Below, piece by piece: positions 2,858-29,229 of a DNA stretch of 64,000 bases. The translations under genes were made by a program, and so were the position numbers. The stretch comes from Escherichia phage CMSTMSU: the sequence record MH494197.1; one strand, written 5' to 3'. Numbering within the stretch: the first letter of the stretch is position 1; every line of letters begins with the position of its first letter. The notes beneath the pieces are model-generated. The model was not told the DNA's origin. It ran no database searches and saw only the letters and a program-made list of their open reading frames with translations.

Positions 2858-3139
2858 TTAAATTATTTCATATAGACAATATACACCATCAACGCCATCA
2901 CAAGGAAAATCAACATAGAAATTCACACTAACAGTATCATAATCAATCTCAGTGATGCGTCCGGTTTTACCTACACTCTTCACGAATAGGTCAGAGCCAA
3001 GATATACAAACTCAAACTCATCTGCATACTCTTTTATAATATCAGCAAAATCACAACCATATCTGGGATCAGTATTAATAATCTCAAGATATAATGTAAT
3101 GTATTGTTCGTATGACCATGTGTGTAGGTAAAAATCCAT
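2858..3139 (-). CDS. hypothetical protein
   Basis: track ORF 93 aa. Confidence 0.4.
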   Translation of the reverse strand: MDFYLHTWSYEQYITLYLEIINTDPRYGCDFADIIKEYADEFEFVYLGSDLFVKSVGKTGRITEIDYDTVSVNFYVDFPCDGVDGVYCLYEII

Positions 3140-3148
3140 AACAGTTCC

Positions 3149-3886
3149 TTAGAAATATACCATACCCATCAATTCTGAATCTTCAGGGCGAGTATAGCCT
3201 TGTTTCTTAACTTTAAAGTAGAAGGATTCATTGTCTTCTAAATTATAACGTTTCTTCAAGCAACGGGTATATGTCTGGCAATTAGGATGAACCCATTCAT
3301 ATATATGAACACCATCTTCATTATAACCATTTATACTACAACGGTTGCCTTCATGTTTCTTGTAGTTCTTGCTTTTCTCGGTAAATTCTTTTACAGCAGT
3401 AGTACTTGGTGATTTATATTCAAAAGGAACTTCAGTCATACGGAAATAATAATATTGATCGTCTTCATCATATCCCAAGAGCACTGTGTTAGTTTCACGT
3501 ACATTGTAATGATTCTTACTTTTCAATTCATTTTCATATATATCTTGAAGTACTTCTTCAAATACTGTAGTACTGTCAGCATTTGGGTTGGATACACCTG
3601 ATACTCTTCGTTCAATAATAAAATCAGTATATTTGCGGTCTTCTGCAATGTCTTCATTCATATAAAGACTAACGAACTTATCCTTGTACGTCTTTACACT
3701 GTATTGTTTACTTTGAACTTCGCTATATACATCTGCTAACATATTCTCCTGACCGCACTGCACACCACTTACAGAATAAGCACATGCATGTTCAGCCATT
3801 ACTGATGTTAACATTTGAAAATTTGCCATGTTTAATTCATTCGCCATCTCTGTAGCGAAACGGATACGGTCAAGCACTTTACACAC
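3149..3886 (-). CDS. hypothetical protein (245 aa)
   Basis: long uninterrupted minus-strand ORF; probable start at MANELNMANFQ...; no motif recognised. Confidence 0.5.
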   Translation of the reverse strand: MCKVLDRIRFATEMANELNMANFQMLTSVMAEHACAYSVSGVQCGQENMLADVYSEVQSKQYSVKTYKDKFVSLYMNEDIAEDRKYTDFIIERRVSGVSNPNADSTTVFEEVLQDIYENELKSKNHYNVRETNTVLLGYDEDDQYYYFRMTEVPFEYKSPSTTAVKEFTEKSKNYKKHEGNRCSINGYNEDGVHIYEWVHPNCQTYTRCLKKRYNLEDNESFYFKVKKQGYTRPEDSELMGMVYF

Positions 3887-3935
3887 TCCTTGTGTTAGTT
3901 ATTGTTCCTCATCCAATATTATATCACTACTTGAG

Positions 3936-4238
3936 CTATTGTCCCGCTTTGTAACAATAAAGATTCTCAAATTTAAAGTTTTCTATATCACATTCCGAAC
4001 GAACTCGATTCTTGTTCCAGAACAAAATGCGAATCCTTTCATAGTCACGATAAACATTAATAATACTTTTGTGTTTAGATTTGTAGTACTGCTGTATAAC
4101 CTGAAGAGTTATATCCCTCAACTTGGACTTAATTGGGTAAGACATATCATTACTAGTTGTTATGGTATAAACCATCTTCATCGTTTCAGCAACAAGTACT
4201 TCATTCGATTTATTTGCCATTAAAATCCTTACAAACAC
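3936..4238 (-). CDS. hypothetical protein
   Basis: track ORF 100 aa. Confidence 0.4.
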   Translation of the reverse strand: MFVRILMANKSNEVLVAETMKMVYTITTSNDMSYPIKSKLRDITLQVIQQYYKSKHKSIINVYRDYERIRILFWNKNRVRSECDIENFKFENLYCYKAGQ

Positions 4239-4663
4239 TATGTAAAGTAAATCCTAAACCTACACCTACGAATGGGAATAGTAAATTAATGTACCAGACA
4301 TTCATTGTCGAAAGGAAACAAATCCCACTTACTGTCAGTACTGCTAGTGAGAAAAGACTCCAGATAAAAATAATGCTCTCATAAAAATGTTACCTCGTTA
4401 GATGAGTAGTTACGATATATTTGTGAATTATGTTCCACACCATGAATTGTTATATGCCCGTTGTAGAAAAAAGTAATATCTACAACTTTGAGTTCTTTAC
4501 GTTTTTAGTACTGAAATATCTACCCACTAACGCAGCATATATATAATCCCTGTACTCTTGAGTAATGAATTTATACATATTATGATTTGCACTACACTTT
4601 TCATCATAAGTATTAGTATATTCTTTCATCAATAACGCATATGTTTTTGTATCAATATAATAT

Positions 4664-5050
4664 TCATCTATAGTTTAATATTGAAATGGGTAGACTATAT
4701 ATATGTACGTAAAGTTTATCAACTCTTTCCATATTCACTTTTAAAGTACTTCCAAGACGACTGATGCTATCTATACGATAAAGCACGTCATTCAGCATCA
4801 TTACGGTATCGGTGTAATCTTCACTAAGAGATTCAATGTAGATATCTTCAAGTTTCACATCCATGCGTGGGATATCTAAATCCCTCAATAAACGCAGTGT
4901 TTGCACGATCAGTTCAGCTTTAGTCATGGATACGCTCACAATTAAGGCAATAAATGCACTCAATGTCAGGTCGCCATGATTTATCGAAATCTTTGTGCTG
5001 TTCTTCAGTGTATTCCGAATCATCATTGATGGGAAAGAAATCACCAGCAC
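4664..5050 (-). CDS. hypothetical protein
   Basis: track ORF 128 aa; overlaps 4920..5120 in another frame, possible frameshift. Confidence 0.35.
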   Translation of the reverse strand: MLVISFPSMMIRNTLKNSTKISINHGDLTLSAFIALIVSVSMTKAELIVQTLRLLRDLDIPRMDVKLEDIYIESLSEDYTDTVMMLNDVLYRIDSISRLGSTLKVNMERVDKLYVHIYSLPISILNYR

Positions 5051-5120
5051 CAGTGGCCCAGTCTGAATCTAAACGGAAACGAGCTAATTGAGTACTGTTG
5101 CAATATGGACATTTATTCAA
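4920..5120 (-). CDS. small zinc-ribbon-like protein
   Basis: CPYC ... CIYCLNC cysteine pairs in a 66 aa ORF. Confidence 0.35.
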   Translation of the reverse strand: MNKCPYCNSTQLARFRLDSDWATGAGDFFPINDDSEYTEEQHKDFDKSWRPDIECIYCLNCERIHD

Positions 5121-5358
5121 AATTTATTCCTTCTAACTGATATACGTTTAATGAAAATGACCCACTATTATTATCGCATCTGAAACACAGTGTTAAAGAA
5201 CCATTAAAACTAACAACATCAGTACATATACATTTTTCACCATTGGATATGATAGATTTTCCTATATATAAATCTCTTACTATAGTACGGTAATGTTGCC
5301 ATAAAAATAATACACACTTTCATAGTACTCATCTTTTACATATGACAAGTATAAGAAT

Positions 5359-5568
5359 TTATAAAATACTTGTATTTCCTTTAAGTTGTTTTTCATTCTC
5401 CAACTCCAGTAAATTTACACCAATCCAATCAACATCACTATCAGTACTTAATTCCAATCGTAGCTTACCGCTATGACTAACAATATCGCGGAATTTGTAT
5501 ATTTTATTATCACGAACTATACACAAATCATGGTAATATTCATGTAATTCATCCAAAACTTTATCCAT
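5359..5568 (-). CDS. hypothetical protein
   Basis: track ORF 69 aa. Confidence 0.3.
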   Translation of the reverse strand: MDKVLDELHEYYHDLCIVRDNKIYKFRDIVSHSGKLRLELSTDSDVDWIGVNLLELENEKQLKGNTSIL

Positions 5569-5982
5569 ACCGAACGATAGATTTCACCGTAGAGATATTC
5601 TCCAGCATCAACCGTAGCGTATTGGATATACAAAAATTTGTATGTGAATTGTATATCATTAAGATTCATATGTCAATCCTTATAGGTCTGTCAACTTCAA
5701 AACTTTGATCTCCATAAATTCCTATCAGTTTTTCAAGAAATTCAACATGGATAATACCTTGATAAGATTTGACACCTGAGTATTCGAATATATCATCGCC
5801 ATCAGTGTAAGTACTGTAATTCTTTTTATATATTCAGCAATAGAATCTAAGTAATCATAGTAATTATTAATAAATGGTGATTCTTTTGATTCGACATGTT
5901 CACCAATCTTCCCACTAAAAGATACATGTCATACAAACCATATATATTTTATACGTGAATTGAACATCATTCAAATTTAATT

Positions 5983-6243
5983 TCAAGGGAATATCTCCAG
6001 AGGAACACTCGTAAATCCAAAATCAGTGTAGAACTGTACCTCTACTTTACCATCGAGCTTAATGATTATATCTGAAAATTCTGCATGATCGTTGTTGATC
6101 ATTACAGTACTGAATTTTTCTTTAATCCTCTCACGCACAATATTAATCATTTCAATACATGTATCTTCTAAAAATATACTATTATTTTTATTTGCTAGGT
6201 CACGAATGCACTTGAATGTTAATTGGAAATCTTTATAATTCAT
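5983..6243 (-). CDS. hypothetical protein
   Basis: track ORF 86 aa. Confidence 0.35.
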   Translation of the reverse strand: MNYKDFQLTFKCIRDLANKNNSIFLEDTCIEMINIVRERIKEKFSTVMINNDHAEFSDIIIKLDGKVEVQFYTDFGFTSVPLEIFP

Positions 6244-7341: not shown

Positions 7342-7401
7342 ACCATCTAGTACTGGAAATGTTCACTGAATTTGATCATTGATTCTTGCAAAAATAACCT
7401 G

Positions 7402-7707
7402 TTAGATTCGAATCATCAGACATGTAAGTTCGCCGAAGTCAATTACTTCGTCATGTGTTAACTTATCACTACGCTCTAGAACATTGATGATGAATGGTGT
7501 TTGACTATATAATTCAGCCAGAAACGCAACTTCATCAGATGTATAAGAATATCCCATAGGAACAACTTGTGCAGTCCAGTTTCCTAAAGTTTTGTTTGCA
7601 ATGATTGCAACCACCGTATTACCTTTGAATTCAACATGGATTGAACGGAAACCCGAATCCTCATTCTGATCCCAAAGTACTGGGTTAGTTTTAAACAGTA
7701 CTGACAT
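7402..7707 (-). CDS. hypothetical protein
   Basis: track ORF 101 aa. Confidence 0.4.
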   Translation of the reverse strand: MSVLFKTNPVLWDQNEDSGFRSIHVEFKGNTVVAIIANKTLGNWTAQVVPMGYSYTSDEVAFLAELYSQTPFIINVLERSDKLTHDEVIDFGELTCLMIRI

Positions 7708-7843
7708 AGTTATTTCCTCATGTATTTTATTACATCTTCAAATAGTTTAGTTTTCAGTGCATCATCATTACGTAGAAAAGTACTGAAGCTATTAAAATCT
7801 TCATTCTTGGCAAACTCACGCATCTGTGTGGAACTGTAGCGAC

Positions 7844-8238
7844 TTACATTTCGGTCAATTCCAGCTTGAACTGCCTTGATTGAACAAAAATTATATAACT
7901 TCCCATTGTACGTGTCAAGCGTTTTTGGAATGGTTCAAGTCTGTCTGAACCACATATGAAAAGAACATCTAAGTACTTTCCATCCAGTTCTCTCATTATA
8001 TCAAACAGATTATCTTCTGTATAGATATTTTCTTGTACAGATGGGTAAAATCCTTCTGTATAGTACATTTTCAGTTCAGGAGGTAATGGGTTTTGATGGC
8101 ATCAGTACTGGTACTAAGGAATATTTTCAAATCAGCATTGTACTGTTCTTGTAGTGCTTGAGCTTTTTCAAACACTAAACCATGACCTCGATGTACAGGG
8201 TTAATTCTTCCGAATGTCACTACGCATGTTTCTTTCAT
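7844..8238 (-). CDS. cytidylyltransferase-like nucleotidyltransferase (possible NMN adenylyltransferase), split into two frames
   Basis: N-terminal piece 8071..8238 reads MKETCVVTFGRINPVHRGHGLVFEKA (G-x-F-x-P-x-H-x-G-H signature), then a stop and continuation in ORF 7844..8068. Confidence 0.5.
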
Positions 8239-8311
8239 ATGTTCTTCATCACCTGACCAATAGATTTAAGATGGTTGATTTTAGCTGGAGTCAAATACTT
8301 ATCCAGTACTA

Positions 8312-8760
8312 TTAAACAACTAGGGAATGGAGCACTGTCAGTCTTTTATCTGGTTCTTCAGGGATACCGAACTTTAAGCGACCTTTTATAAAACAAATAC
8401 AATCACAAACTTTCGCAGCATAATCCTGAAAGGCTATAGTATCAGTTCTTGATGGTACGAGAATCAGTACTGTAGCACCTTTGTTATATGCATCAACTGC
8501 CTTAGATAACCACGTTTTCAAATCACTGTACGGTGGGTTGAGCCACACGATATTGTTTCCCAGTCCTGTTCAAGTGAATTGTCTTCTGGTGTAAAGAACT
8601 TATCACACAATGCAGTTTCTTTGACACACGCTGCATCTAGTGTAAATTCCCAGAGTTCATCCAAATCTTCAAAGAAATCCTTTGGAGTAGTCCAGTTATC
8701 TTTTCCAGTACTGAAATGTACTGATTGTTTTTCTTCGAAGCATCCTTCTTCGACATACAT
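8312..8760 (-). CDS. Dam-like DNA N6-adenine methyltransferase (PF05869-like), frame-shifted
   Basis: WTTP, FTLDAAC, NPPYS, PSRTDT and KGRLKF motifs across overlapping ORFs 8518..8760 and 8312..8548; shift lies just before NPPY. Confidence 0.7.
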
Positions 8761-8772
8761 AATTTCCTTTGA

Positions 8773-9174
8773 TTATAGACAGTTAAGTACTATGTCATCA
8801 AAAGTACTACTGTCAATGTTGTATTCATATAAAAATTTAAAATGTGATCCATAACGCATCATCAGATTAAACTCTTCTTCAGTATTAAATTTGTAATCAT
8901 GAAGAGTTTCAAGGGTACATGTTAAACCTAAAAACTCAATAATTTCTGATGTTACATCATTTCCTGAATTGAAGTATTTAACCCAAACACATTTTCCTTG
9001 TGGGTTGAATTTTCTATATTCTCCTTCTAGTTCTCCATTGACGATATGTGCTTTCGCACTGATTAGATTATTACTATAACGCTCTTCGTAGTAGTTCCCA
9101 TAACGAGCTTTAAGAATTGTAGGCTTCTTGGTTGGGAATAACTTAATGGAAGTTAATTCAAAACCGCACTGCAA
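8773..9174 (-). CDS. hypothetical protein, possibly MORN/YwqK-like repeats
   Basis: 133 aa; NGELEGEYRKFNPQGKCVWVKYFNSGN resembles G-x-x-G-x-W-x-x-Y repeat pattern; weak. Confidence 0.35.
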   Translation of the reverse strand: MQCGFELTSIKLFPTKKPTILKARYGNYYEERYSNNLISAKAHIVNGELEGEYRKFNPQGKCVWVKYFNSGNDVTSEIIEFLGLTCTLETLHDYKFNTEEEFNLMMRYGSHFKFLYEYNIDSSTFDDIVLNCL

Positions 9175-12991: not shown

Positions 12992-13372
12992 TTAGCCATA
13001 CTTACTCCAAATCGGATCTTTAACTGTTAGGCTTTCAATATCACTTGCGTAAAGAACTACATTAGTTTGTGTCTCTGATACTTTAAAATCATGATAACTA
13101 TCTTTCACTTTAAAATTATCCAAAATAAACCCTTTACTACAACACATCATGATTTTATCATCTTTGATAGTGTATGTATTCTTTTTCTTACGTACTTCAG
13201 ATTGTGGGGTAATATTATCATTGTTACGAATAACACAATCAATGTACTCGTCATTTGTACTCATAGGCATACCCATGATAAACGAATTGCTAGTACTGAT
13301 TGTTAGTATGAAAACATTAGTATTTGGATTGTGAAAGAAGTCGTGCATAGTTTTACTGCATAAAACAAGCAC
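12992..13372 (-). CDS. hypothetical protein
   Basis: track ORF 126 aa. Confidence 0.4.
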   Translation of the reverse strand: MLVLCSKTMHDFFHNPNTNVFILTISTSNSFIMGMPMSTNDEYIDCVIRNNDNITPQSEVRKKKNTYTIKDDKIMMCCSKGFILDNFKVKDSYHDFKVSETQTNVVLYASDIESLTVKDPIWSKYG

Positions 13373-13556
13373 TGAATTATGTCCTTTACATTGAACATTA
13401 TATCATGAACTTTGAATGCGTCCAACTCTAAAATGTCATCTATCTTTCCATTCTCAACAGTTTTAATCTCCATGATCTATCCTTGATCTTCAAAGGCACT
13501 CCATGTGCACATATATTAGGTCACAGCTTTGTATTTCTCCATTGCTTCGGTGATAT

Positions 13557-14015
13557 TCAATACTGCTTGCGGTACGTCATTTTGTTGTATGCAGTGGTTA
13601 GTTTTTCCATGTTATTGAGAAGACTTAGAAACAATGGAAGTACTTCTGCATTGTCACTGAAGTTACAATCATTGACAGTACTCAATTGGAATAACTCACC
13701 AGCATCAACATTGAGTGTGTTGTATTCTTTAACAATGTTTTCTTCAGTATTGAAGATGTAGAATACAGTCCCCATGTGGTGTAAGTATACACCAGTATCA
13801 TTCTGAATATGACATGGGGTGATTACAATTGCTGTGTTATCAATATTATTTACTATTGTCAAACGCAGACTATGTAACCCAAAGATTACAGTACAATCCT
13901 TTGTACTGTGTTGGATCTGGTCACTAGTAAAGGAAGACCCACTATGATTTTTAGATCCATTTAGTATTTCTTTGATAATTTTAAATGAATACTTCATAGA
14001 ATTAGTTAAAAGCAT
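13557..14015 (-). CDS. hypothetical protein, weak family A motif
   Basis: 152 aa; DAGELFQLSTVND. Confidence 0.45.
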   Translation of the reverse strand: MLLTNSMKYSFKIIKEILNGSKNHSGSSFTSDQIQHSTKDCTVIFGLHSLRLTIVNNIDNTAIVITPCHIQNDTGVYLHHMGTVFYIFNTEENIVKEYNTLNVDAGELFQLSTVNDCNFSDNAEVLPLFLSLLNNMEKLTTAYNKMTYRKQY

Positions 14016-14359
14016 GAACTTTACCTTTAAGTAAATTAATTAATGTTCGCATAGATTCAGTACTGACAGTACCAAAATCAACACCTAAGCACTCGTATTG
14101 AAAGAACTCAATAGAATCAATTGAGTCCAAAGGAATCTCAACAACCTGATTCCCTATACCAGACATAGTAACATTGCTTTTATTAATCGTCAAGAAGTTT
14201 TTGAATAAGTATTAAATTTTAGTGAAATCGCATCGGGTGCTTTGTAACAATGCAGTACTGGGAGCCATACACATATAGTACTTTACTTTCACTAAGATCC
14301 GTTTTAAAAAATGAATCCCATTGAAGTATTTCTCATTGGCTCCCATCGCCGCGATTAGT

Positions 14360-14686
14360 TCATCTGTTGTTGTTAACCTTGTTTCGTTCTTCGTTAAACT
14401 GTTGAAAAGCATAGAATACTACCTTAACCATTTGTAGTGTTTCAGACATTACTTCTGATGAAAATTCAACATCATTGAATTTCAGCATAGTGTTCTGTGT
14501 AAAGAAAGTTGCTTCTAAGTCTTCCAGATTGAAGGGTTCATCAAACAAATTAGTACTGAACATGTCAGTCTTCTTCTTGTATGTGAACAAGAATTTGGAA
14601 TTATAACGAAGAACTATTTCATCTTTATTAACCAAAATACGTGCAATGTTCTGACGTGTCAATGTGGTAATGTTTAAATTGAACAC
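14360..14686 (-). CDS. hypothetical protein, degenerate family A motif
   Basis: 108 aa; EDLEATFFTQNTML. Confidence 0.4.
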   Translation of the reverse strand: MFNLNITTLTRQNIARILVNKDEIVLRYNSKFLFTYKKKTDMFSTNLFDEPFNLEDLEATFFTQNTMLKFNDVEFSSEVMSETLQMVKVVFYAFQQFNEERNKVNNNR

Positions 14687-14911
14687 GTTCTTGCGTGTTT
14701 CAGTGATATCAACAAAATACCCATCTCCTGATGGATATTACATCGTACATCCAACCCTTTCTGTACTGTATTGAACAGTGCATCTTGAATAAAATAATTT
14801 GCTGTATCGATGTTTCCTAAAATGTCTAACATAACTTCTCCTTGATTGCTGTCATATTTAGAAGAAATTCTTCAAGCAATTCCTCTGTAACATACTCAAC
14901 ATACCAGAATA

Positions 14912-15343
14912 TCACAATATCTTTGAAAGTCGAGTATTCTTAAAAATATCTACTAACTCTTTGTAGTACTCAAGATCATATACATCTTTTATAATTAGTG
15001 AGTACTGAAATAGTGATTCTTCAGTTAACTTAAATTCTGGATATAGTAAGTCATTAAATTCTAATGATTCTGATTGTACTTTTATTTTAGTGAAGTCATT
15101 TGTTAATCCACCATTATATCCATATAATGCAGCGTAATTCACGAACTTGGCTTTTGGATTAAAATCAAGAACAGTTTCACCTTTATATGACAATCGGTGG
15201 AACGCCGTGAACTTTGTAATTTGCCACGGTTGCTTAATGCCTAAGTCATTTATGTCTTTATTATTGTACATAAGAACTGTGAATATTTCAGCAATCTTCA
15301 ATAATAATTTAGTACGTGCTAGTACTGTCATAGGTTCAATCAT
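14912..15343 (-). CDS. family A paralog
   Basis: core TEESLFQYSLII near C-terminus. Confidence 0.5.
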   Translation of the reverse strand: MIEPMTVLARTKLLLKIAEIFTVLMYNNKDINDLGIKQPWQITKFTAFHRLSYKGETVLDFNPKAKFVNYAALYGYNGGLTNDFTKIKVQSESLEFNDLLYPEFKLTEESLFQYSLIIKDVYDLEYYKELVDIFKNTRLSKIL

Positions 15344-15813
15344 TATACACCTTCATATTCATCAAGGAAATCTTCGATGATCATTTCTGCATCATCCATA
15401 TGCATAGCATCTACTTCAACAATGCGAACCTTAGATGCATCCCAAATCATATAGCTAGGAACTGTATCTGGTTCGTAATCGTTCTTGTACTGAACTGCAT
15501 CATAGCCGTTAATTTCGCAGTACTCAATCACTCCACGCCATTCGTCGTCACTGCCCATATCCGTCCACAGAAGCACGTTATCAACATCAACTTCTAAGGT
15601 ATGTAAGTATACTGTATCAGCGTCAACAACGTTCAGTGGGCTTCTCAGCTTGCGTAATGCAGCTTCTAAAGCACTGTGTTTACCTCCCATATGAAGGCCA
15701 CCATACGGGATATAAAAGTTATCAATTTTACAGTACTCGCATGATACAGTTTCATTATTCATTCCTATTTCAGTACTTTGACCGGGCTTTAACCGCTGTT
15801 TCAAGTTGTGCAA
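15343..15813 (-). CDS. hypothetical protein (156 aa)
   Basis: track ORF; acidic C-terminus; no motif recognised. Confidence 0.45.
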   Translation of the reverse strand: MHNLKQRLKPGQSTEIGMNNETVSCEYCKIDNFYIPYGGLHMGGKHSALEAALRKLRSPLNVVDADTVYLHTLEVDVDNVLLWTDMGSDDEWRGVIEYCEINGYDAVQYKNDYEPDTVPSYMIWDASKVRIVEVDAMHMDDAEMIIEDFLDEYEGV

Positions 15814-16219
15814 AGTCGTTGATTGTAAGATAATGAATACCCAATGTACTCATTTCTGAATCTATTTTACTATACAAATCGAACATGTCAAGTAGATATT
15901 GATATGTATATGACTCCGATGACACACATGATTCTTGAAATAGACGTTCTTCCATATCATTTACTACTTCATCATTTACGTCTCGAATCACACCATCTTT
16001 GTATGTGTAGTAAATCTCATCCCATTCATCTGATAAGCGGAATAGTAAAGGCTTACCATTAAACATCTCAAGGTCATATGCATTGACTTCACTCAATAAC
16101 ATATCATCAGGATCAGGTGTGAAATCGAATTGAGCGAGTGAAGAACCATCATAATCCTTAAGGAATACACCAATAGCATTCAATTTAACTTCGCCATAAT
16201 TGCCATTCTTGAACTTCAC
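15770..16219 (-). CDS. family A paralog
   Basis: core MEERLFQESCVS. Confidence 0.5.
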   Translation of the reverse strand: MKFKNGNYGEVKLNAIGVFLKDYDGSSLAQFDFTPDPDDMLLSEVNAYDLEMFNGKPLLFRLSDEWDEIYYTYKDGVIRDVNDEVVNDMEERLFQESCVSSESYTYQYLLDMFDLYSKIDSEMSTLGIHYLTINDFAQLETAVKARSKY

Positions 16220-16336
16220 ACGAATATTAATATCAATGCTTTGAACCGTATCATCATCTTGGAACTGATAATCAATTTTATACTTTTCCCAAAGTTTTTA
16301 ATATCTTTGAAGTACTTAATTTTACTTTCTATTTCT

Positions 16337-16564
16337 TTAAAGTTCATCTGGAACCACCATCTCTTGTATGTTCTTGCATTTTATCATTGCACAATTAGTA
16401 TGTAAAATGATAGAGTACTTATGTAATGATTTAATTTTATAACACTCATTAAGTACTGAAATGATGCCCCATAACTCTTCTACATCAATAGTGATAGGTT
16501 CACTAGTACTAAGTTGCATTAGTGCTGCTTCCACATCATCTTTGTTATTGATTTTGAACTGCAT
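16337..16564 (-). CDS. hypothetical protein
   Basis: track ORF 75 aa. Confidence 0.35.
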   Translation of the reverse strand: MQFKINNKDDVEAALMQLSTSEPITIDVEELWGIISVLNECYKIKSLHKYSIILHTNCAMIKCKNIQEMVVPDEL

Positions 16565-16572
16565 ACCACGTT

Positions 16573-16833
16573 TCAGTATTTTGGTTTTGGATTATACTCT
16601 GCCATTACATCACCTTCAGGGTAACCCTCGTGTAATAATAATGTAGTCTCATAATCTCCACAATTGAAATTAATTTCATCATAGTCAGGAACACAAATCA
16701 TTCCTTCACCATATTGATTATCTACTGATTCGATTGTTAAAATACGCTGATGTTCATTACTCAGGATAATAGAATCGTGCCAGTACTGCGTAGTGAATTT
16801 ACTACGTTTCTTTTGACAGCACATACTTGACAT
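16573..16833 (-). CDS. hypothetical protein
   Basis: track ORF 86 aa. Confidence 0.35.
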   Translation of the reverse strand: MSSMCCQKKRSKFTTQYWHDSIILSNEHQRILTIESVDNQYGEGMICVPDYDEINFNCGDYETTLLLHEGYPEGDVMAEYNPKPKY

Positions 16834-16930
16834 GGGACCATACTTTTATATAGGGACTTCTTGAATGCTATCGCACGAGCCACCTTAATAACTTCTCGAA
16901 TTAGGTCAATAGCTTCTTGATAACTTTTTC

Positions 16931-17137
16931 TCATTTGTCGTACCCATATAAAATATGATCTAGTGTGCATTGTACTTCTTCATGGAAGAACAATGGGTAA
17001 ATTTGTATTAATTTTTCTTTAAGTTCAAGTGAATGGCATAATTCTAATGCTTTGATACAATCTTCATATTGAACTAAGCTATGTATTGTACTTAACTGGA
17101 AATGTTGTTCTTCAGAGTAAGCTAAATCATATACCAA
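16931..17137 (-). CDS. family A paralog
   Basis: core SEEQHFQLSTIH. Confidence 0.45.
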   Translation of the reverse strand: MVYDLAYSEEQHFQLSTIHSLVQYEDCIKALELCHSLELKEKLIQIYPLFFHEEVQCTLDHILYGYDK

Positions 17138-17224
17138 ATTATCATCTAAAAGGTTTGATTTCTTTGAAGGATCAAGTACTGTGTTGCTATGACCTACCCA
17201 GAAAAAGCATTGGTGTTCATATTA

Positions 17225-17479
17225 TTACAACCCCAACCTGCCCCATTTTTGGTGAATAGCAAAGACACAACTATCATAGAGATTAATACCAAGACGCTCT
17301 TCGTTGACATAAATCGTAACACCATCGATTGTCATGGTTATTTGGAAACGCATTGAACCTTCACTTCGTGATCGTGCACAGAAGCCAAGATAACGGTTGA
17401 TAATTGTATTGATTTTATCTGCCCATCCTTCCACATCTTTGGATGCACATAATTTAAAAAGATCATGACTTTGATTCAT
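17225..17479 (-). CDS. hypothetical protein
   Basis: track ORF 84 aa. Confidence 0.35.
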   Translation of the reverse strand: MNQSHDLFKLCASKDVEGWADKINTIINRYLGFCARSRSEGSMRFQITMTIDGVTIYVNEERLGINLYDSCVFAIHQKWGRLGL

Positions 17480-18053
17480 GTAGTTCTCCGTTAATCAAGC
17501 ATAAGTGGCATCATCGCCCATATCTTTTCATAATCATATCTTCAGTAAAACAAACGTTTTAGGTGCAGTATATGATATTGACAACCCAAATGGAAGTACG
17601 ATTGCATCATCAATTATATTATGAATATCAAACCATGTTTTACACAATCATATGGTGGAAGTTCATGTATTGTACTTAACTGAAAGTATTGTTCTTCACC
17701 AAATGTACTGCAATCAATATCACAAATTTTAGTGAATTGATGATTCCATTTAGATATAATACTGTTTTATTATTGAACATATTAGTTCTATGCATGAAAC
17801 CATTTCTGCTAATATGATTTGATATTGCGTTTTCTTCAATATCATTGCTTATTTTAAAATTCATGTCAAAGTTGTAGTGCGAACTCGACGATTCTTTGAA
17901 TTTTAAATGAAAATAACGATTGTTATTAATTTCCATTTCAATACAAAACACATCTGAATCAAAACGATTAAACTTGTAATCGTTGTCTTCAGGTAGAGTT
18001 TGTAATTTTTCATAACACCAAGCATAGGGTGCACTAAGCTTCTAATAAAATCA

Positions 18054-18446
18054 TTAGTTATTTTCATAGTATTCCTTTAGAACTTTAAATGATTCAACAA
18101 TACTATCTTGTGTGTAATTAGAACTATATACAATTGCATTTGATTTGATTGACCACAGATATGACATAAAGGTTATAACACTACTACATGAACTTAATGT
18201 ATTGTTTTGGAATTCATTTTCTTCAATGTTATCAGTACTGGTATTGATGAATTGGATAGTATCTTGTTTCTGATTAGACATTGAAACTAAAGTACAATCA
18301 GTATAAGGAGTGTACAAAAACGTCTCATTACTAATTGAACTATCATTAGTATATGATGGTTTGGTAATATAAATCAAACGCATGATATCACGCTCAATAC
18401 CCGATTTACGACTTTCCACTAAAGAAATCATATCTATATTTTTCAT
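18054..18446 (-). CDS. hypothetical protein
   Basis: track ORF 130 aa. Confidence 0.4.
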   Translation of the reverse strand: MKNIDMISLVESRKSGIERDIMRLIYITKPSYTNDSSISNETFLYTPYTDCTLVSMSNQKQDTIQFINTSTDNIEENEFQNNTLSSCSSVITFMSYLWSIKSNAIVYSSNYTQDSIVESFKVLKEYYENN

Positions 18447-18555
18447 ATGATCAACATTGACATGGAACTTTTGTTTAGAATTACATCTTTTGGGGAATTT
18501 TTATATGAAGATAAGATCTCATACATCTCAACTAATTCTCGTGCATTTAATAAAC

Positions 18556-18981
18556 TCATGTTTTGTCTCTTAATGAAAGAATATCCTTAGTATAAACTGA
18601 TACAGAAATGTGATTATATTTCATCATTAATTTATACACATAAGAAGCTAGTACTAAATCGTAAATTAATTTAGTATCATACAGTACTCCGTATTGTAAA
18701 GCAAGTGAATCAATATCATCTTTACTTTCAATATCCAGAAATGTGCCGAAATATGTAGTACCGTGGAGATGAAAATTGGAATTAATGCAATCAATGCATT
18801 CATTGTCCAACAGAGTAGATGATGATGCCCTCGGTGAATCCCAAATAGTCACTGCGTGTATGCCCTCAACGAACAAATCTATCCATATTTTGTGTCGTTG
18901 TCTTTTTGTTTTATAATTTTCTGGATTTGAAAGTGTAGTTTCAATTATATCCCATATGTATAAGCATTCATCTCTTGTCAT
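18556..18981 (-). CDS. hypothetical protein
   Basis: track ORF 141 aa. Confidence 0.45.
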   Translation of the reverse strand: MTRDECLYIWDIIETTLSNPENYKTKRQRHKIWIDLFVEGIHAVTIWDSPRASSSTLLDNECIDCINSNFHLHGTTYFGTFLDIESKDDIDSLALQYGVLYDTKLIYDLVLASYVYKLMMKYNHISVSVYTKDILSLRDKT

Positions 18982-19099
18982 TATAGCACCTTATCCATTG
19001 CTGCATTTAATGCTTTTAAACGATCAACATTCAAAGTATTGAAGATGTACGTTCCTAAAATGTGGAAATCGAACTGGTTCTTTTTGTATGTGTGATAAA

Positions 19100-19555
19100 T
19101 TAAACTACAAAAACAACAGTACTAAGAACCTCTTCCGGTATAACGGTGCTCATCTGAAACAGTTCTTCATCAACTGTACTTGATTCTGGATTGATAGCTT
19201 TTAACTCATACTCTTTATCACCGAATAGTACTTTAATATTATATAAAACACCAACAGTACTAATATGAAATGGATGGTGTGAAAAACTTCCATCATCATT
19301 AATTTGGATATCGGATCTAATCTCGCACTCTTCATTACTTTTACTATTATTTTTACAATACAAATATTCCGCACCAGAAATAGTAAGAATACCGTGATCG
19401 TAATATTCTTTGGACAAACATTTAGATGAAAATGACACATCACGAATGAGGTAATGTTTGTTAATTTCTTTGGCACTACCAACAATGTGTAGCATCTTTG
19501 TGCTGATATCATATAGCTGTTGGTGTCGGGCTGTCATATAACTATAAGCGTTCAT
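19100..19555 (-). CDS. family A paralog
   Basis: core VDEELFQMSTVI. Confidence 0.45.
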   Translation of the reverse strand: MNAYSYMTARHQQLYDISTKMLHIVGSAKEINKHYLIRDVSFSSKCLSKEYYDHGILTISGAEYLYCKNNSKSNEECEIRSDIQINDDGSFSHHPFHISTVGVLYNIKVLFGDKEYELKAINPESSTVDEELFQMSTVIPEEVLSTVVFVV

Positions 19556-19919
19556 ATGTATCCTTGATGTTTTGATTGCCGTGTAGCTCTTTTAATGTAT
19601 CGGATTCACAGTTAATGAACTTACTATACATTACCAATTCACCAGTGTCAATAGCTTTTGCAGTTTCATAGCAAAGCATCATGTACTCAAACTCCTTGAA
19701 GTTGTCAAGTACTGATCTCTGGAAAATGTATGCTTCACGAATGTCTTCACTTTGATCTAGTTCTGGTGGAATTTCCAAATATGTATCATTCTCTACGTCA
19801 TCAAAATTAGATTCAACAATTCGATTAATATCTTCGTGTAAAGCATTGACAAATATCATGTTTGGAGTAATGGAACCGATTTGCTCACTATGCCTTGATG
19901 TGCGGATATACATTGCCAT
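19542..19919 (-). CDS. family A paralog
   Basis: core IREAYIFQRSVLD. Confidence 0.5.
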   Translation of the reverse strand: MAMYIRTSRHSEQIGSITPNMIFVNALHEDINRIVESNFDDVENDTYLEIPPELDQSEDIREAYIFQRSVLDNFKEFEYMMLCYETAKAIDTGELVMYSKFINCESDTLKELHGNQNIKDTYERL

Positions 19920-20122
19920 AGTATCCCATGAACCTTTTTCGTCGTTCCATAATCGTAAACTTTATAAGACTCCAGTACTACTGAACCAAAACGATATGGT
20001 GATTTGCATTCAACTTTAAGACGATAATTTCCAATAGGCTCATGTTCAGTAATGTTGTGCTTTTCAGATAGTTCTGCAATGTCATGCATCAATTTCATAA
20101 TTTGAATGTGTTCAGCTTGCAT
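19856..20122 (-). CDS. hypothetical protein
   Basis: track ORF 88 aa. Confidence 0.35.
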   Translation of the reverse strand: MQAEHIQIMKLMHDIAELSEKHNITEHEPIGNYRLKVECKSPYRFGSVVLESYKVYDYGTTKKVHGILWQCISAHQGIVSKSVPLLQT

Positions 20123-20270
20123 TATAAGTCCTCTAATTTAACAGGTACATGTTCATTGATGAACGTCTTAAGAGCCAGTACTAGATCTTCTAATTCTTCT
20201 GTACTGAATTTTAATATAGTTTTAAAGATTATCAATTCATTTCTTTCTATAATCTTTGGAATTTCATATG

Positions 20271-20684
20271 CTAACATAAGATTGCGAACAGTACCAGCGT
20301 TGTGTATGAGGTTCGCATTGAATAAAAGTACATCGTACTCGTCTTTTTAATTTTATAATTGTACTCTTCAATTACTTCATGTGTGTATGTATTCTTATAG
20401 GCAATTTTATTTTTATGAAATTTATAACCAACAGTAACACTATCATCATAAAATGTAGAACGATAATCTTGTTTTCTATCGCCGGACGAAATGATGTGTA
20501 ATGCTGTGTATTTGTCCTCAACATCTAACTCAATGTTTGCATAACTGTTAACGGTTTCATTCTTTAGGACGTTAATGTTATATTTCTCATTAACTTTAAT
20601 GTACTGGCGTGAACCATTATCATCAATGAACTTAAAACAATGCTTTACCAACAATGTGATTTCTTTAATTAATTCAGTACTCAT
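20271..20684 (-). CDS. hypothetical protein
   Basis: track ORF 137 aa; promoter-like TTTACA-17-TATAAT and AGGAG SD upstream. Confidence 0.45.
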   Translation of the reverse strand: MSTELIKEITLLVKHCFKFIDDNGSRQYIKVNEKYNINVLKNETVNSYANIELDVEDKYTALHIISSGDRKQDYRSTFYDDSVTVGYKFHKNKIAYKNTYTHEVIEEYNYKIKKTSTMYFYSMRTSYTTLVLFAILC

Positions 20685-20711
20685 ATCTTCTCCTGTACTC
20701 TGTTAAAAGCG

Positions 20712-20740
20712 ATTATAACACACCTGAATGCTCATGTAAA
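20712..20740 (-). promoter_or_regulatory. sigma70-like promoter
   Basis: TTTACA - 17 nt - TATAAT read on minus strand, about 28 nt upstream of the ATG at 20684. Confidence 0.4.
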
Positions 20741-20750
20741 GCACTAAACA

Positions 20751-20778
20751 CAAAAAGACCCATAAGGGTCTTTATTTT
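20751..20778 (-). terminator. rho-independent terminator (possibly bidirectional)
   Basis: stem AGACCC/GGGTCT, 4 nt loop, flanked by A-run and T-run. Confidence 0.55.
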
Positions 20779-21049
20779 GGTAAAACGCTGTCAATGTACG
20801 CTAGAGCCTCATCTCGGAGGTACGTTCCATCTATTGTTATGTAATAGTTCTTAGGATATCACTCCCAATCTTCTCGTAAATTTTCATACATGATATCACA
20901 TCTTCATCACAAATGGTACTCAATTGAAACTGTACTTCATCAGTTAAAGGTACGATATCATGTTTAGATGGGGTTGGTATTTTCATTCAAAACAATATCA
21001 AACAAATTAGGAGTATTCTTTGACGAAATGTAACGATGTTTACTACGAA

Positions 21050-21649
21050 TTACCATTCTCGACAGAGAAATACTGGAACTCCATCTTGGTCCACATCTTC
21101 GTATGTTAACGCAATTAACATTTCATAATAATCTTGGAATTTCATTGATGCATAATATGTTTTGTCCTCACCGTACATTCCAAATGATTTGAATTCAATG
21201 TCACCTACATTGTGTGTATCGCTATCACTATTCACGAATTTTAACAGACTGTTGATTAGTCTGATTAGAATATCATCTTTATTCATTATCAGATAACTCC
21301 CTGTGCATGTTGTATAAATCTCTAAAGTCCTGATAGAAATCTTTTCTTCAAGAATATCTTTTAAACTAGGAATCTCATCCATAATCTCATCGATATCAGT
21401 TTCAATAGTAAAACCTGATTTATAATTTTGTAAGAGATAACTAAAAGCAACAAGATAAAGAATTTCATTTGGTTTATGGATTAACATGTGTTGGAACATA
21501 ACTGATTCTAAATCAGATTCAGTACTAAGGTCAGCATAACATGTATCGTTGGTGTCAATTCGTACTTTACTTGAATTTGGATTCCATGTAAAGCAATGTG
21601 TTCCAACTGTTCCCAAACATCCTACTCTTGTACTATCATTTGTTCCCAA
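21050..21649 (-). CDS. hypothetical protein, degenerate family A motif
   Basis: 199 aa; ESVMFQHMLIH. Confidence 0.45.
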   Translation of the reverse strand: MGTNDSTRVGCLGTVGTHCFTWNPNSSKVRIDTNDTCYADLSTESDLESVMFQHMLIHKPNEILYLVAFSYLLQNYKSGFTIETDIDEIMDEIPSLKDILEEKISIRTLEIYTTCTGSYLIMNKDDILIRLINSLLKFVNSDSDTHNVGDIEFKSFGMYGEDKTYYASMKFQDYYEMLIALTYEDVDQDGVPVFLCREW

Positions 21650-22418
21650 AAGATATCAAAATACGTTTCATCTGTATAATCGTATTTTTGTACTTTACCT
21701 TTTTAAGGCATAAATCATTATCCTTTCGAAAAGTTTTAGATGATAGTGTATCAATGATGCACATTAATGTTTTTGCAAATGCAATACAATGACGTAATTC
21801 AAGTCTATGGAAATTATAATTAGTAAAATTCATAAAATTCATAATTGTACCTTCAATATTTTATCAGCAATTGATATAACCTTGTCATTGAATACATTAC
21901 CAATCTCAATTCTTATATACATCGCAGGTGGAATCTTTCCCTGAAGTGCATAATATGTTTGTATACCTAAGTACTCATTATTTGATAATGAAAATTTGAT
22001 TCTCTCCATATCTATGTCTGATTTTGGTAAATCTAGTAGTTCATGGTGGTAGTCAACATTTTCAGTGTATATTGATTTAAGTAATTTGAATGATCACTAC
22101 TAATGTAGATGCTATCATCACGAATAATTACTTTATAATCAGAAGGTTCAAACTTATCTTTAGGAGAAAAGAAGACATCATCTATCTTCTTCTCGTATAC
22201 CGAATAACAATTTACCATCGTACTTTACATCAAGCATATTACCTAGAATAGTAATTACACAATGTTCATCAATGTCATGACGTAATGAACGAGTCTTGTA
22301 TTTTGGGTTAATGAAAATTTTCATTAATTTTATACAAATGTCGGCAATGCATTTTACATTATCATTTTCTATGTACATCAAAACCCTCTTTAATTCTTTT
22401 ACATTTTAATGAATACTT

Positions 22419-22853
22419 TCATTGCAGAGATCTCAAAAGATAATGATTTAAAATTGCAGTACTTTTAAAGTACGACATAATGAATAGCATTTTGAGTTCT
22501 TTTTCTGTGTAAATTAAACTATTTTGAAAGTAACTTTCTTCTGATAAATCATCAAGAAAAGGATATACAACTCCATTTGGAGTCAAGAACATGACACGTT
22601 CACTCCAAGATCTAAATGAAATGTAATCAGTCTTACCACATTCATATAAGGAGTTTATCATTCCATCAATCATTAAGGAGAACTCAATACTGTATCCTAA
22701 TCTTTGACACTTGTATCTCTTATCTTCTTTCTTTGTAATTACGAAGTGACGACCCAATGAGTCTTTGTTATCGAAAATGAAATCAACTGTCTCTAAACAC
22801 TCCTTAGCGAACTTCATAGTTTCTCTGTACTTTCGGTTCATTAGTCTCTCCAA
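22419..22853 (-). CDS. family A paralog
   Basis: core SEESYFQNSLIY. Confidence 0.5.
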   Translation of the reverse strand: MERLMNRKYRETMKFAKECLETVDFIFDNKDSLGRHFVITKKEDKRYKCQRLGYSIEFSLMIDGMINSLYECGKTDYISFRSWSERVMFLTPNGVVYPFLDDLSEESYFQNSLIYTEKELKMLFIMSYFKSTAILNHYLLRSLQ

Positions 22854-23587
22854 ACTTTACGGAAGTGTTTCTCGTAGAACTCATCATCACTTAACATATA
22901 ATCAGGTGTTTCTACTTCTATGGGTTTGTAGAATGTTTCTGGAATGTGTGTAATTTTATTTGGTTGTACTTTATGTTCGCGTAAAACCTTCTGTATAGCT
23001 CCTAGGCGTTGTAAATCAATACAGGTGGGCAGAACTAAGCTGTACTGAAATAGCTCATCAGGGTCATTATAGATACATCCTTGGCTTGTTTGATTTTATT
23101 GTTGGCATCAATGAATATATCAAATCCAAGTACTGCATTATAGCTTACATATGTTGTTTTGTTTTTGTCAATAGCTGCACTTAAACTATATCCATATATT
23201 CCATGTTGGTCAACAATGCATCGTTGCATAATTTTAATCATTTCGAACATAATTTACCTCGTATGTGTTATAATTCCACGTTTTAACACTATCCATTTGT
23301 ATATCCTGAACTTCATGGAAATATTTAAGTACCTTCTGGTATTCCATTAGTTCGTACACATCTTCAGTATTGACAGTGCTCTCCTGAAACAATTCCTCTT
23401 CTGATAAAGTACTATAATCAGGATTTTTATTTCAGAATATATCTCATTCATATATGAATCATTTTGGTAAATCTGTAGATAAAACTGATTATATTCAGGG
23501 ATATAGGTTACGAAATGGTTCTTGATGAATTCATATCTTGAAGCAAAGCAATCATTGCCATCCGTCATGTACTGAATTGTTGTTGTA

Positions 23588-24070
23588 TTATGCATTCAAA
23601 TAATCCACGCATTTATGGTATACATCTAAATCTAAAAAGAATCGTTGTTTGTATTTGTAATGATGAAGTAGTGCACCATAAAGTAATATAGCATTAAGTA
23701 CTTTTGCATCATGAATACAAGACCCTTGGAAGTACATTTCTTCAGTCATGAAAACTAACTCATTGTAAGGGATAAGCACTGAATCTCTAAATGTATCAAT
23801 GTTAATCTTCAAATCGGACCCTTGGCAATATGAAATATATTCACCTCTGTAATGAAAGTCATTATCGTCAAAGTACTCAGCATATACTTGATTGTTCCTA
23901 TTATTTTTAAAGGCAAGTCTTCCTTTGGTTGAACTGAATTGGTCATATTGGAACATTCCACCAAAAGGCATTCCACCGAAAGGTTGGGGACTTCTGAACT
24001 CCTTTGCAATGCGATGAATGTTAGATGCAAATTCTAAAACACCATCGTAATCATATTCTGTTGTAATCAT
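23588..24070 (-). CDS. family A paralog
   Basis: core TEEMYFQGSCIHD. Confidence 0.5.
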   Translation of the reverse strand: MITTEYDYDGVLEFASNIHRIAKEFRSPQPFGGMPFGGMFQYDQFSSTKGRLAFKNNRNNQVYAEYFDDNDFHYRGEYISYCQGSDLKINIDTFRDSVLIPYNELVFMTEEMYFQGSCIHDAKVLNAILLYGALLHHYKYKQRFFLDLDVYHKCVDYLNA

Positions 24071-24601
24071 AGACCATTTTTCTCCATGTACTCAATGATT
24101 TCATCTACGAAGTTTAAATCCATATAGAATCTATCATTTGCGTCATTGAGTTCATCTTTAAGTACTGTAAAAATTGTAGAACTAAACACGATTCTCTCAT
24201 TGTACAAAGTACTGTACTGGAAGAATTCTTCTTCTGATCTAACATTAAATGTGTCATATTCATCATCAACATCAGATCAGGATGATAGTACTTAAAACTA
24301 TCAGATGTATGGAAACAATATGAGATAAAATCCTGATGGTGCATCGTCAAGTACACGAATACCACAGAAATTCTCATCTGTAGTATGCAACAAATTGCTA
24401 TTCATTGACAAATAATTTTTGTACGCATAAAGTGTGCATCTTGGGAGAATTATATTCTCTTTAACTGTTACAAGGAACTTATGAAGTTTAATGATATTTT
24501 GTGCGATTTTTTGTGCATTGCTAAATGATAGGTCTTTGACATTGTGATATAACCCTTTACAATTAATATAAAGAGATTATATCACAAAGATTTGGAGGGT
24601 G

Positions 24602-24856
24602 TCAAGAGTTCTCACGAAGTTCTACCATTTCTTTCCATACTAAATGGTAATCTTCTAAGTCCAGATAGAAGTCTTCATTTAAGTGCTCATATAAGTACTT
24701 GTACATGAATAGTACACCTAAATTATATTCAGTATTAAGTAATGATTGTTGGAAGTAGTTTTCTTCATTTAGTTCTATATCCATGAACTCAAATCTACCT
24801 AGACCTTTTAATGTACGTATCTCAACATGTGAAGTATCTGTTTTACTGAAGCACAT
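24602..24856 (-). CDS. family A paralog
   Basis: core EENYFQQSLLN. Confidence 0.5.
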   Translation of the reverse strand: MCFSKTDTSHVEIRTLKGLGRFEFMDIELNEENYFQQSLLNTEYNLGVLFMYKYLYEHLNEDFYLDLEDYHLVWKEMVELRENS

Positions 24857-25134
24857 GAATCCACCTCTAAATTCGGATCATATTCACATTCATACTGTCC
24901 ACTGTTATTATAGAAATCTCTATTACCATCCTTATCTTTTGGCTTAACAACTGATACGTGAAGGTCGTCATCTTTGTACATTGTACGTTCTGGCGTTTTC
25001 ACACATTTTAACTTATTTTCTTTAATGTACTTGATAATATCAATTATATCTTGTGCAGTACTGATTGCTGCCTCAAACGTATCCAACTTAAGATGATTGT
25101 ATAGAGTTCCCTCGTTCTTTATTTTATCTAACAT
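24808..25134 (-). CDS. hypothetical protein
   Basis: track ORF 108 aa. Confidence 0.4.
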   Translation of the reverse strand: MLDKIKNEGTLYNHLKLDTFEAAISTAQDIIDIIKYIKENKLKCVKTPERTMYKDDDLHVSVVKPKDKDGNRDFYNNSGQYECEYDPNLEVDSCASVKQILHMLRYVH

Positions 25135-25140
25135 AAAACC

Positions 25141-25479
25141 TCATAGTTCATACATCTTTGATTTGAATTGCATTGGTCCACCAACTTCACATGGATAATT
25201 TTCCATAATACGATTCAAAAGTATCTGGTACTGTTGTAGTACTTCAATTTCCAAATGTATACTACTATCCAGTACTAATGACTCCTGAAACAATTCACCT
25301 CTATCTAAACCTGAAAAATCATTTATAGTTAGCATTGGCTTATCATTTGTACGCAATGTAAATGATTCCTCATTTCGGATTAATGTACAGAATTCATTAT
25401 GTTTTCTGTTGTAATCCATTTTAACCAATAATAACTTGGTGTGAGTTGCGTACATTATTTTTACTAATTCAGTCTTCAT
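25141..25479 (-). CDS. family A paralog
   Basis: core GELFQESLVLD. Confidence 0.5.
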   Translation of the reverse strand: MKTELVKIMYATHTKLLLVKMDYNRKHNEFCTLIRNEESFTLRTNDKPMLTINDFSGLDRGELFQESLVLDSSIHLEIEVLQQYQILLNRIMENYPCEVGGPMQFKSKMYEL

Positions 25480-25750
25480 AACGGAATAAAATTCTCCTGT
25501 ACTGCTCCGGCTTAGTACTCAATCTCTTCACTGGATAATTGTCGAAGATCCTTTTCATTTCTTTCTGGATTAAACAAAGAAAATCAAAATCACAATAGTA
25601 TTTTTTATCCCATACTAAACTTTCTTGAAACAACTCATCTTCTTGCATTAGCGTAGTATCAATTGTATCTTCACGTGTATTTGAGTACGCTTCATGACAT
25701 TGAAAACCATCCTCGGATAATCCTAATGTATATGCCGCCATTTCAAACAT
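25469..25750 (-). CDS. family A paralog
   Basis: core EDELFQESLVWD. Confidence 0.5.
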   Translation of the reverse strand: MFEMAAYTLGLSEDGFQCHEAYSNTREDTIDTTLMQEDELFQESLVWDKKYYCDFDFLCLIQKEMKRIFDNYPVKRLSTKPEQYRRILFRYED

Positions 25751-25832
25751 ATCATCATTTGTCTTTAACGAAAGTAAACAACAAACGTATTTTTCGTTGT
25801 GTAGTAAGTAATGCTAATGGTATTCATTGGAT

Positions 25833-26435: not shown

Positions 26436-26484
26436 AGTAGATCCTTATACATTGCATGTATTCTTACAATGTCTCTGTAATAAC

Positions 26485-26727
26485 TCATATCTTCACGATT
26501 ATCATTAAAACAGTAACACTGAATACAGCAGTACTAATTGAACTATCAACAATGTACTCTTTTAATTTATTATAAAGATATATGCACTTAGTAGATGTAT
26601 CATCCCACATAAGACTATTTTGAAAGATGTTTTCTTCTGTGTTAGGATATAAGTACTGCTCAATCTTGTACCCCAATGAACTATCACAGTTTTTATATAC
26701 AGAAATAGATGGACATTCATATTGCAC
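26485..26727 (-). CDS. family A paralog
   Basis: core EENIFQNSLMWD. Confidence 0.45.
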   Translation of the reverse strand: MQYECPSISVYKNCDSSLGYKIEQYLYPNTEENIFQNSLMWDDTSTKCIYLYNKLKEYIVDSSISTAVFSVTVLMIIVKI

Positions 26728-27158: not shown

Positions 27159-27203
27159 TAACCCTCTTCTGAATAAGTTCCTGTAAGTGCTGAATATAAC
27201 CCT

Positions 27204-28298: not shown

Positions 28299-28382
28299 TT
28301 TTTCTGGACTCCATATATATCACCTGATTTAGTTCATATACATAATCTAAATCAATGAATATAGAATTATTAAAGTTCTCTT

Positions 28383-29227: not shown

Positions 29228-29229
29228 TT

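Follow-up and report, generated by a model that had tools for sequence, protein, structure and literature searches.

Genes of T4-like cyanophages have long been known to encode a 'cytitidyltransferase' (T4-GC 190 in P-SSM4), and cyanophage versions of this protein have been reported in virion proteomes (PMC9146016; PMC10665884). A survey of polyvalent proteins (PMC5512222) and a survey of jumbo phages (PMC7824862) do not mention the domain family to which it belongs. In phage NAD+ salvage modules, a nucleotidyltransferase is fused to a Nudix domain or to a P-loop kinase domain (PMC9503650). The canonical module of the Rak2-like phage CBB consists of CBB_113 (NadM-Nudix) and CBB_115 (nicotinamide phosphoribosyltransferase, NAMPT). 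Here, a nucleotidyltransferase gene of Escherichia phage CMSTMSU is compared with these systems within a stretch of 64,000 nucleotides of sequence record MH494197.1, referred to as the window. The segment 8238..7710 on the minus strand is very probably a single gene that is unbroken in nature and split in the record by an assembly artefact, and it encodes a 177-aa single-domain HIGH (HxGH) nucleotidyltransferase with a putative AMP-transferring activity, probably outside any NAMPT-based NAD+ salvage module.

The gene and its interruption

The MKETCVVTFGRINPVHRGHG peptide is encoded on the minus strand, with its start at 8238. Three open reading frames (ORFs) of the program-made list (Table 1) form one collinear reading in different frames upon three-frame translation, and tblastn places the intact 177-aa protein on the locus in three collinear pieces (residues 1-50, 49-108 and 106-177). 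The region 7700-8250 was aligned with the orthologous 534-nt genes of Escherichia phages EC.P1 and WPEC5, to which the window gene is near-identical apart from three indels, namely two frameshifting deletions in homopolymer runs and one in-frame deletion. In the mended protein, NPVHRGHG occupies residues 13-20 and SSTQMR residues 136-141. The initial annotation had described a gene of about 130 aa, interrupted by a stop, at 7844-8238. This interval does hold two of the ORFs, but the full-length gene has about 176 codons and runs on to 7710, so that its last third with SSTQMR had been missed. The break itself is confirmed, but it is due to two 1-nt deletions in homopolymers; an in-frame stop is not its cause. 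Verification of the frames thus upheld the gene as real, composed of three frames joined across the two deletions, and corrected its boundaries. The HxGH motif that had been pointed out is genuine, both superfamily signatures and the fold being present, and the assignment to the cytidylyltransferase-like (HIGH) superfamily was right. The initial annotation had pointed to NAD+ salvage modules of some large T4-type phages; the source phage is not of the T4 type and belongs to Asteriusvirus, the 121Q/PBECO4 group of Rak2-like jumbo phages.

Comparison of the window with EC.P1 over about 47 kb (window 1260-47868) has revealed 232 deletion and 41 insertion events. The proportion of reference homopolymers that are shortened in the window is 0.3% for runs of 1 nt, 5% for 4 nt, 30% for 5 nt, 85% for 6 nt, 89% for 7 nt and 100% for 8 nt. 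Deletions are present at 14 of the 15 CCWGG (Dcm) sites but at only 2 of the 69 GATC sites in the window. The EC.P1 stretch has 113 minus-strand ORFs of 70 aa or more, of which 85 are hit in the window by one or more frameshifting indels, at a density of 4.6 per kb. With two frameshifts in 534 nt, the nucleotidyltransferase gene is at this background rate, and its flanking genes contain one to three each. Nanopore-type assemblies that have been left unpolished are known for this combination of homopolymer compression and errors at Dcm motifs. EC.P1, WPEC5, TH47 and 121Q all encode the intact 177-aa protein, the TH47 copy being recovered in one unbroken tblastn alignment (the TH47 record is itself deposited as 'UNVERIFIED' without annotation), and the protein is found again, with 94-99% identity, in several independent clusters of metagenomic and genomic sequences. 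Since the homopolymer and Dcm deletion pattern goes together with intact relatives, the interruption is treated as a sequencing error, which, by comparison with relatives 96-99% identical, it almost certainly is. As judged from this comparison, the window derives from a long-read-type assembly that was left uncorrected and in which homopolymers are systematically too short and bases are missing at Dcm sites.

A real pseudogene in this isolate, or expression by programmed frameshifting, would explain the two frameshifts that stand in the given sequence. However, both are single-base homopolymer losses, their rate matches that in 75% of the neighbouring ORFs, they are accompanied by Dcm-site deletions typical of base-calling error, and the frame is unbroken in every relative, making such an explanation extremely improbable. 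Since the 47 kb compared contain about 270 indel artefacts, of which the split is one, findings in the window that depend on stops, frameshifts, short ORFs or split genes are suspect. The locus matters mainly as quality control.

Family membership and fold

The mended protein matches the phage 'cytidyltransferase' family far beyond chance, aligning with PHROG 3041 over residues 2-176 at E=4e-54 and with PHROG 395 at E=1e-24, both of which carry that label, and being 99% identical to intact orthologues. The PHROG of nicotinamide mononucleotide (NMN) adenylyltransferases (NMNATs) matches at E=0.2 only. In the curated libraries the matches are weak and sub-threshold: Pfam returns FAD_syn at E=0.002 and CTP_transf_like (PF01467) at E=0.007, and the NCBIfam matches, to RibF and NadD models, are N-terminal only. 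In phage genomes searched by tblastn, 565 phage records carry the family, about 460 of them from Synechococcus and Prochlorococcus myoviruses, with E values of 1e-15 to 1e-23 to the cyanophage genes. The other carriers include Pelagibacter phage HTVC008M, Pseudomonas and Vibrio jumbo phages and Rak2-like phages, the latter with 57% (KP13-7), 52% (Munch) and 40% (Kaldavass) identity in tblastn. Cyanophage versions span 172 to more than 1000 aa, and in many homologues the domain lies N-terminally, or occasionally C-terminally, in proteins of 300-1400 aa. Pfam places ParB_N, Zeta_toxin/AAA_33, Hint/intein and DUF5824 domains in the remainder of some of these long homologues, and one long member is encoded on a 36-kb contig among genes for replication and nucleotide metabolism (RecA-like, DnaB-like and NT5C).

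The motifs FGRxNPPxxGH, KNPL, GSDR, YNG and SxTxxR are shared across an alignment of 55 single-domain members of the family. His-19 and Arg-100 are invariant in this alignment, and Gly-10, Arg-11, Gly-18, Ser-136 and Arg-141 are conserved in at least 90% of the members. AlphaFold2, run on the same alignment, predicts with a local distance difference test score (pLDDT) of 97.1 and a template-modelling score (pTM) of 0.90 a Rossmann-like alpha/beta fold, which is superposable on known members of the HIGH superfamily. Among viral models in BFVD, family members superpose with template-modelling (TM) scores of 0.8-0.92, and an annotated viral NMNAT ranks 44th with a TM score of 0.63.

A phmmer search of PDB sequences with the single protein gave no match, so the family profile was needed. 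The profile matches phosphopantetheine adenylyltransferase (PPAT) at E=3e-5 (positions 4-148) and Staphylococcus aureus NadD at 7.5e-5, both over the full length, and its matches to archaeal and NadM NMNATs are limited to the N-terminal ~60 residues (positions 8-68 in the archaeal case). Against the bona fide phage NadM, CBB_113, it aligns over positions 3-74 only, which is the ATP-binding part. An NCBIfam scan of the 55 members produced only sub-threshold matches, to four models of NMNAT or nicotinic acid mononucleotide (NaMN) adenylyltransferase (NaMNAT) in 40, 22, 18 and 13 members, to PPAT in 16 and to RibF in 14, and no NMNAT model comes near its cut-off for any member. By these comparisons, the predicted enzyme is on the adenylyltransferase side of the superfamily, approximately equidistant from NMNAT, PPAT and NadD, and is a member of none of them by curated criteria. 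The earlier description of the protein as NMNAT-like therefore holds for the resemblance of the fold but not for family membership, the score being 18.6 bits against the 112 of TIGR00482.

Acceptor and NAD+ salvage

In the proposed reaction, ATP would be bound via GRxNPxHxGH and SxTxxR, and AMP would be moved onto the phosphate of a small phosphorylated acceptor with release of pyrophosphate. Both nucleotide-binding motifs and the fold being conserved, and AMP transfer from ATP to the phosphate of a small acceptor being common to all of the nearest characterised enzymes, the phage protein may well act in the way that NMNAT, PPAT and NadD do. NMN or NaMN would be the leading acceptor among the known ones, although this is itself doubtful, 4'-phosphopantetheine comes second and is unlikely, and a CTP-using reaction is a distant prospect. 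An acceptor new to the superfamily is at least as likely as NMN or NaMN.

The initial annotation had proposed that the protein fits a NAD+ salvage module. A search for the partner genes of such a module, whose absence the initial annotation had itself named as a refutation, runs against this proposal: in the complete TH47 genome (352,450 bp) and in the window, tblastn at E<=10 gave no match to NAMPT and only noise for NadM-Nudix. Orthologues of the CBB NAMPT with 56-96% identity were found by tblastn in GAP32, Munch, EJP2, RaK2, K64-1 and KP13-7, and Asteriusvirus is absent among the best 60 matches. CBB- and GAP32-type phages carry NadM-Nudix and NAMPT at the slot that holds proteases in 121Q, where the interval from the dCMP deaminase and Ig-domain protein to Sir2, Nudix and PhoH contains ClpP- and HslV-like protease genes and no NAMPT. 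The 121Q lineage encodes a Sir2-family protein with an adjacent stand-alone Nudix protein. This Nudix protein (121Q gp477) was considered as a Nudix partner and rejected, being Nudt16/decapping-like, located 26 kb away beside Sir2 and unrelated to the Nudix domain of NadM. The Asteriusvirus lineage thus appears from its gene content to have a NAD+ consumer, Sir2, without NAD+ salvage genes, and the Asteriusvirus papers on Sharanji, JP4 and EJP2 do not mention NAD genes. The 177-aa protein is a single domain without fusion to a Nudix or P-loop kinase domain. Since the module was not found in the lineage, the protein does not, on this genomic evidence, serve as NMNAT in a phage NAD+ salvage module built on NAMPT, and the salvage-module idea fails for the 121Q/PBECO4 lineage. 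In Munch, KP13-7 and Kaldavass, NAMPT is present and an orthologue of the nucleotidyltransferase gene lies about 25-29 kb away, and CBB and Serratia phage BF have NAMPT and NadM-Nudix plus a family member. Because the separate NadM-Nudix/NAMPT module coexists with it, the family gene of Rak2-like phages with a NAMPT module is, by gene content, not the salvage NMNAT there either.

A functional NMN/NaMN adenylyltransferase could nevertheless act on host NMN or NaMN, without a phage NAMPT, and increase the NAD+ of the infected cell, which would counter NAD+-depleting defences or supply the phage Sir2. The Arg-containing GR(F)xP and KNPL motifs resemble GRFQP and KNPF of NadM, NMNAT models are the commonest among the sub-threshold NCBIfam matches in the family, a Sir2-family NAD+ consumer is present in the lineage, and the same speculation is in print for the cyanophage homologues (PMC10665884). 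However, all NMNAT model scores are far under their cut-offs, the part of phage NadM covered by the profile excludes the acceptor-binding part, a true viral NMNAT appears only at the 44th place in BFVD, and NAMPT and NadM-Nudix were not found in TH47. Moreover, such an enzyme would be redundant in relatives that keep the family gene beside a complete NadM-Nudix and NAMPT module, and the family occurs in about 375 records of Synechococcus phages, a group outside the ten that most often bear NAMPT, each of these with at least 55 records. An NMNAT activity is accordingly possible but not the probable one. A PPAT-like enzyme making dephospho-CoA is a less probable candidate still and must be called unlikely. 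The best full-length profile matches are PPATs, the size of about 160-180 aa and a frequent T-x-G-H variant of the motif are PPAT-like, and an acyl carrier protein, for which CoA-derived phosphopantetheine is required, is encoded by Rak2-like relatives. On the other side, the PPAT model TIGR01510 is matched by only 16 of the 55 members and below threshold, GSDR stands where PPAT has its RGLR/DFEYE motif, further genes of the CoA pathway were not seen, and the link to the acyl carrier protein is circumstantial, coming from Rak2-like relatives. A true cytidylyltransferase, for example of the glycerol-3-phosphate or phosphocholine type, would agree with the database labels 'cytidyltransferase' and 'cytitidyltransferase' and with the weak Pfam match to CTP_transf_like, but the label stems from the name of the Pfam family and not from an assay, and the C-terminal SxTxxR motif with its helix is of the adenylyltransferase type, which makes a cytidylyltransferase very unlikely.

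Several points weigh against the reading of the locus as an unbroken gene for an AMP-transferring HIGH enzyme that is not an NMNAT. The single sequence scores under the gathering cut-off of CTP_transf_like (16.9 versus 21 bits), although several family members pass it with 22-32 bits. The function of the family 'remains unclear' (PMC9146016), and its nucleotide (ATP or CTP) and its acceptor are assigned by inference only. The sub-threshold NCBIfam matches lean to NMNAT models (40, 22 and 18 of the 55 members) over PPAT (16 of 55). The artefact is deduced by comparison with relatives 96-99% identical, from which the strain may truly differ at a few of the indels.

There is a further, rather speculative possibility that the family constitutes a separate HIGH adenylyltransferase branch, neither NMNAT nor PPAT, with a novel acceptor, which serves as an early-delivered or virion-packaged enzyme for host takeover or counter-defence and of which the coliphage gene is the minimal stand-alone form. 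The abundance of the family (at least 2678 cluster representatives at E<1e-3 in an exhaustive HMMER search), its near-universal occurrence in T4-like cyanophages, its long multidomain proteins and their detection in virions favour a separate branch. The question of the acceptor is a real one for the family, but this locus, with its ordinary orthologue of an already annotated jumbo-phage gene, does not pose it and does not make it easier to test.

Gene neighbourhood and comparison with known systems

By megablast, 30 jumbo coliphage genomes are matched by window 7400-8800, with identities of 99.0% for EC.P1, 98.6% for Ecwhy_1, fEgEco12 and WPEC3, 96.5% for TH47 and about 82% for 121Q/PBECO4. 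Every annotated relative has an unbroken 177-aa coding sequence for the nucleotidyltransferase, labelled 'cytidyltransferase', 'phosphopantetheine adenylyltransferase', 'hypothetical protein' or, wrongly, 'ribonucleotide reductase A'. By sequence and position, the gene is the orthologue of 121Q gp418 and of the 'cytidyltransferase' gene of PBECO4, and many relatives already have it annotated. The label 'ribonucleotide reductase A' or 'NrdB' on this gene in KM507819.1, PP777464.1, MH791411.1 and NC_019443.1 is an erroneous annotation that has been propagated; the protein does not resemble ribonucleotide reductase.

The upstream neighbour is a Dam-family methylase gene (Table 1), which is broken in the window into three fragments by deletions at 8344, 8559 and 8728. 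The pair of methylase and nucleotidyltransferase genes is kept in 121Q, Munch, WPEC5 and EC.P1, and the coliphage gene is always coupled to the Dam-like methylase. In all Rak2-like relatives, the stop codon of the methylase gene and the ATG of the nucleotidyltransferase gene overlap (ATGA), which suggests translational coupling. A functional pairing of the two enzymes was considered and not adopted, as cyanophage and Pseudomonas phage members of the family have no methylase neighbour.

Table 1. Positions of the features discussed; window numbering applies unless another phage is named
Feature	Position	Strand	Basis and remarks
ORF 1, 55 aa	8238..8071	-	program ORF list
ORF 2, 74 aa	8068..7844	-	program ORF list
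ORF 3, 37 aa, MREFAKNEDF...	7823..7710	-	program ORF list
Whole nucleotidyltransferase gene, ~176 codons after mending two frameshifts	7710..8238	-	alignment to 534-nt orthologues
Frameshift site 1, 1-nt deletion	8091..8094		alignment; T4 on + strand, T5 in relatives (coding-strand A-run)
Frameshift site 2, 1-nt deletion	7922..7926		alignment; T5 on + strand, T6 in relatives (coding-strand A-run)
3-nt in-frame deletion in CCTGG (Dcm) site	7771..7772 junction		alignment; LPGND to LRND
N-terminal motif GRINPVHRGHG, HxGH ATP-binding/catalytic signature	8179..8211	-	consensus FGRxNPPxxGH
C-terminal motif SSTQMR (SxTxxR), second signature of adenylyltransferase-type HIGH enzymes	7818..7835	-	third fragment
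Dam-family DNA N6-adenine methyltransferase, upstream neighbour	8235..8760	-	PF05869 E=2e-32 on intact EC.P1 orthologue
Slot with protease genes in 121Q, with NadM-Nudix and NAMPT in CBB	121Q (L006) 25421-28476; CBB (L005) 2983-6190		synteny
T4 Rnl1-type RNA ligase, intact, 383 aa	415-1566	-	PF09511 and PF20819

Elsewhere in the window, the gene for the RNA ligase listed in Table 1 is intact, and in 121Q a polynucleotide kinase is encoded about 1 kb beyond the ligase; the two are read as an RNA-repair gene set. Long same-strand runs of small genes, of about 140-195 aa and then about 70-85 aa, occupy window ~13000-33000 and ~43000-50000, with L003 13355-32975 and 43100-49900 as the counterparts. 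Neighbouring positions within such runs cross-match in BLAST, for example EC.P1 29107-29676 with 31324-31504, which suggests arrays of tandem paralogues.

The window copy is most like the Asteriusvirus orthologues of 121Q (gp418), PBECO4, WPEC5 and EC.P1 (XOD30562.1), with which it shares 82-99% nucleotide identity, the 177-aa length once mended, the position after the Dam-like methylase with the ATGA overlap, and the flanking genes, and from which it differs by two 1-nt deletions and one 3-nt deletion, all attributable to assembly error. The 'cytitidyltransferase' of T4-like cyanophages (P-SSM4 PSSM4_155 and S-PM2) is of the same domain family, with 24-37% identity, TM scores of 0.85-0.92 and shared motifs, but the cyanophage proteins are usually longer (~360-1020 aa) owing to extra N- or C-terminal regions, whereas the coliphage protein is the bare domain. 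Likeness to NadM-type NMNATs, namely Francisella NadM-Nudix (2qjt), Methanocaldococcus jannaschii MJ0541 (1f9a) and CBB_113, amounts to 13-15% identity and is confined to the ATP-binding third, and unlike them the phage protein has neither a Nudix fusion nor a NAMPT partner and is found alongside a genuine NadM-Nudix in phages of the CBB, Munch and RaK2 types. Compared with CoaD/PPAT, it falls under all curated cut-offs including TIGR01510, and GSDR...YNG stands in place of RGLR..DFEYE; compared with NadD, it stays as far below the cut-off of TIGR00482 as noted above.
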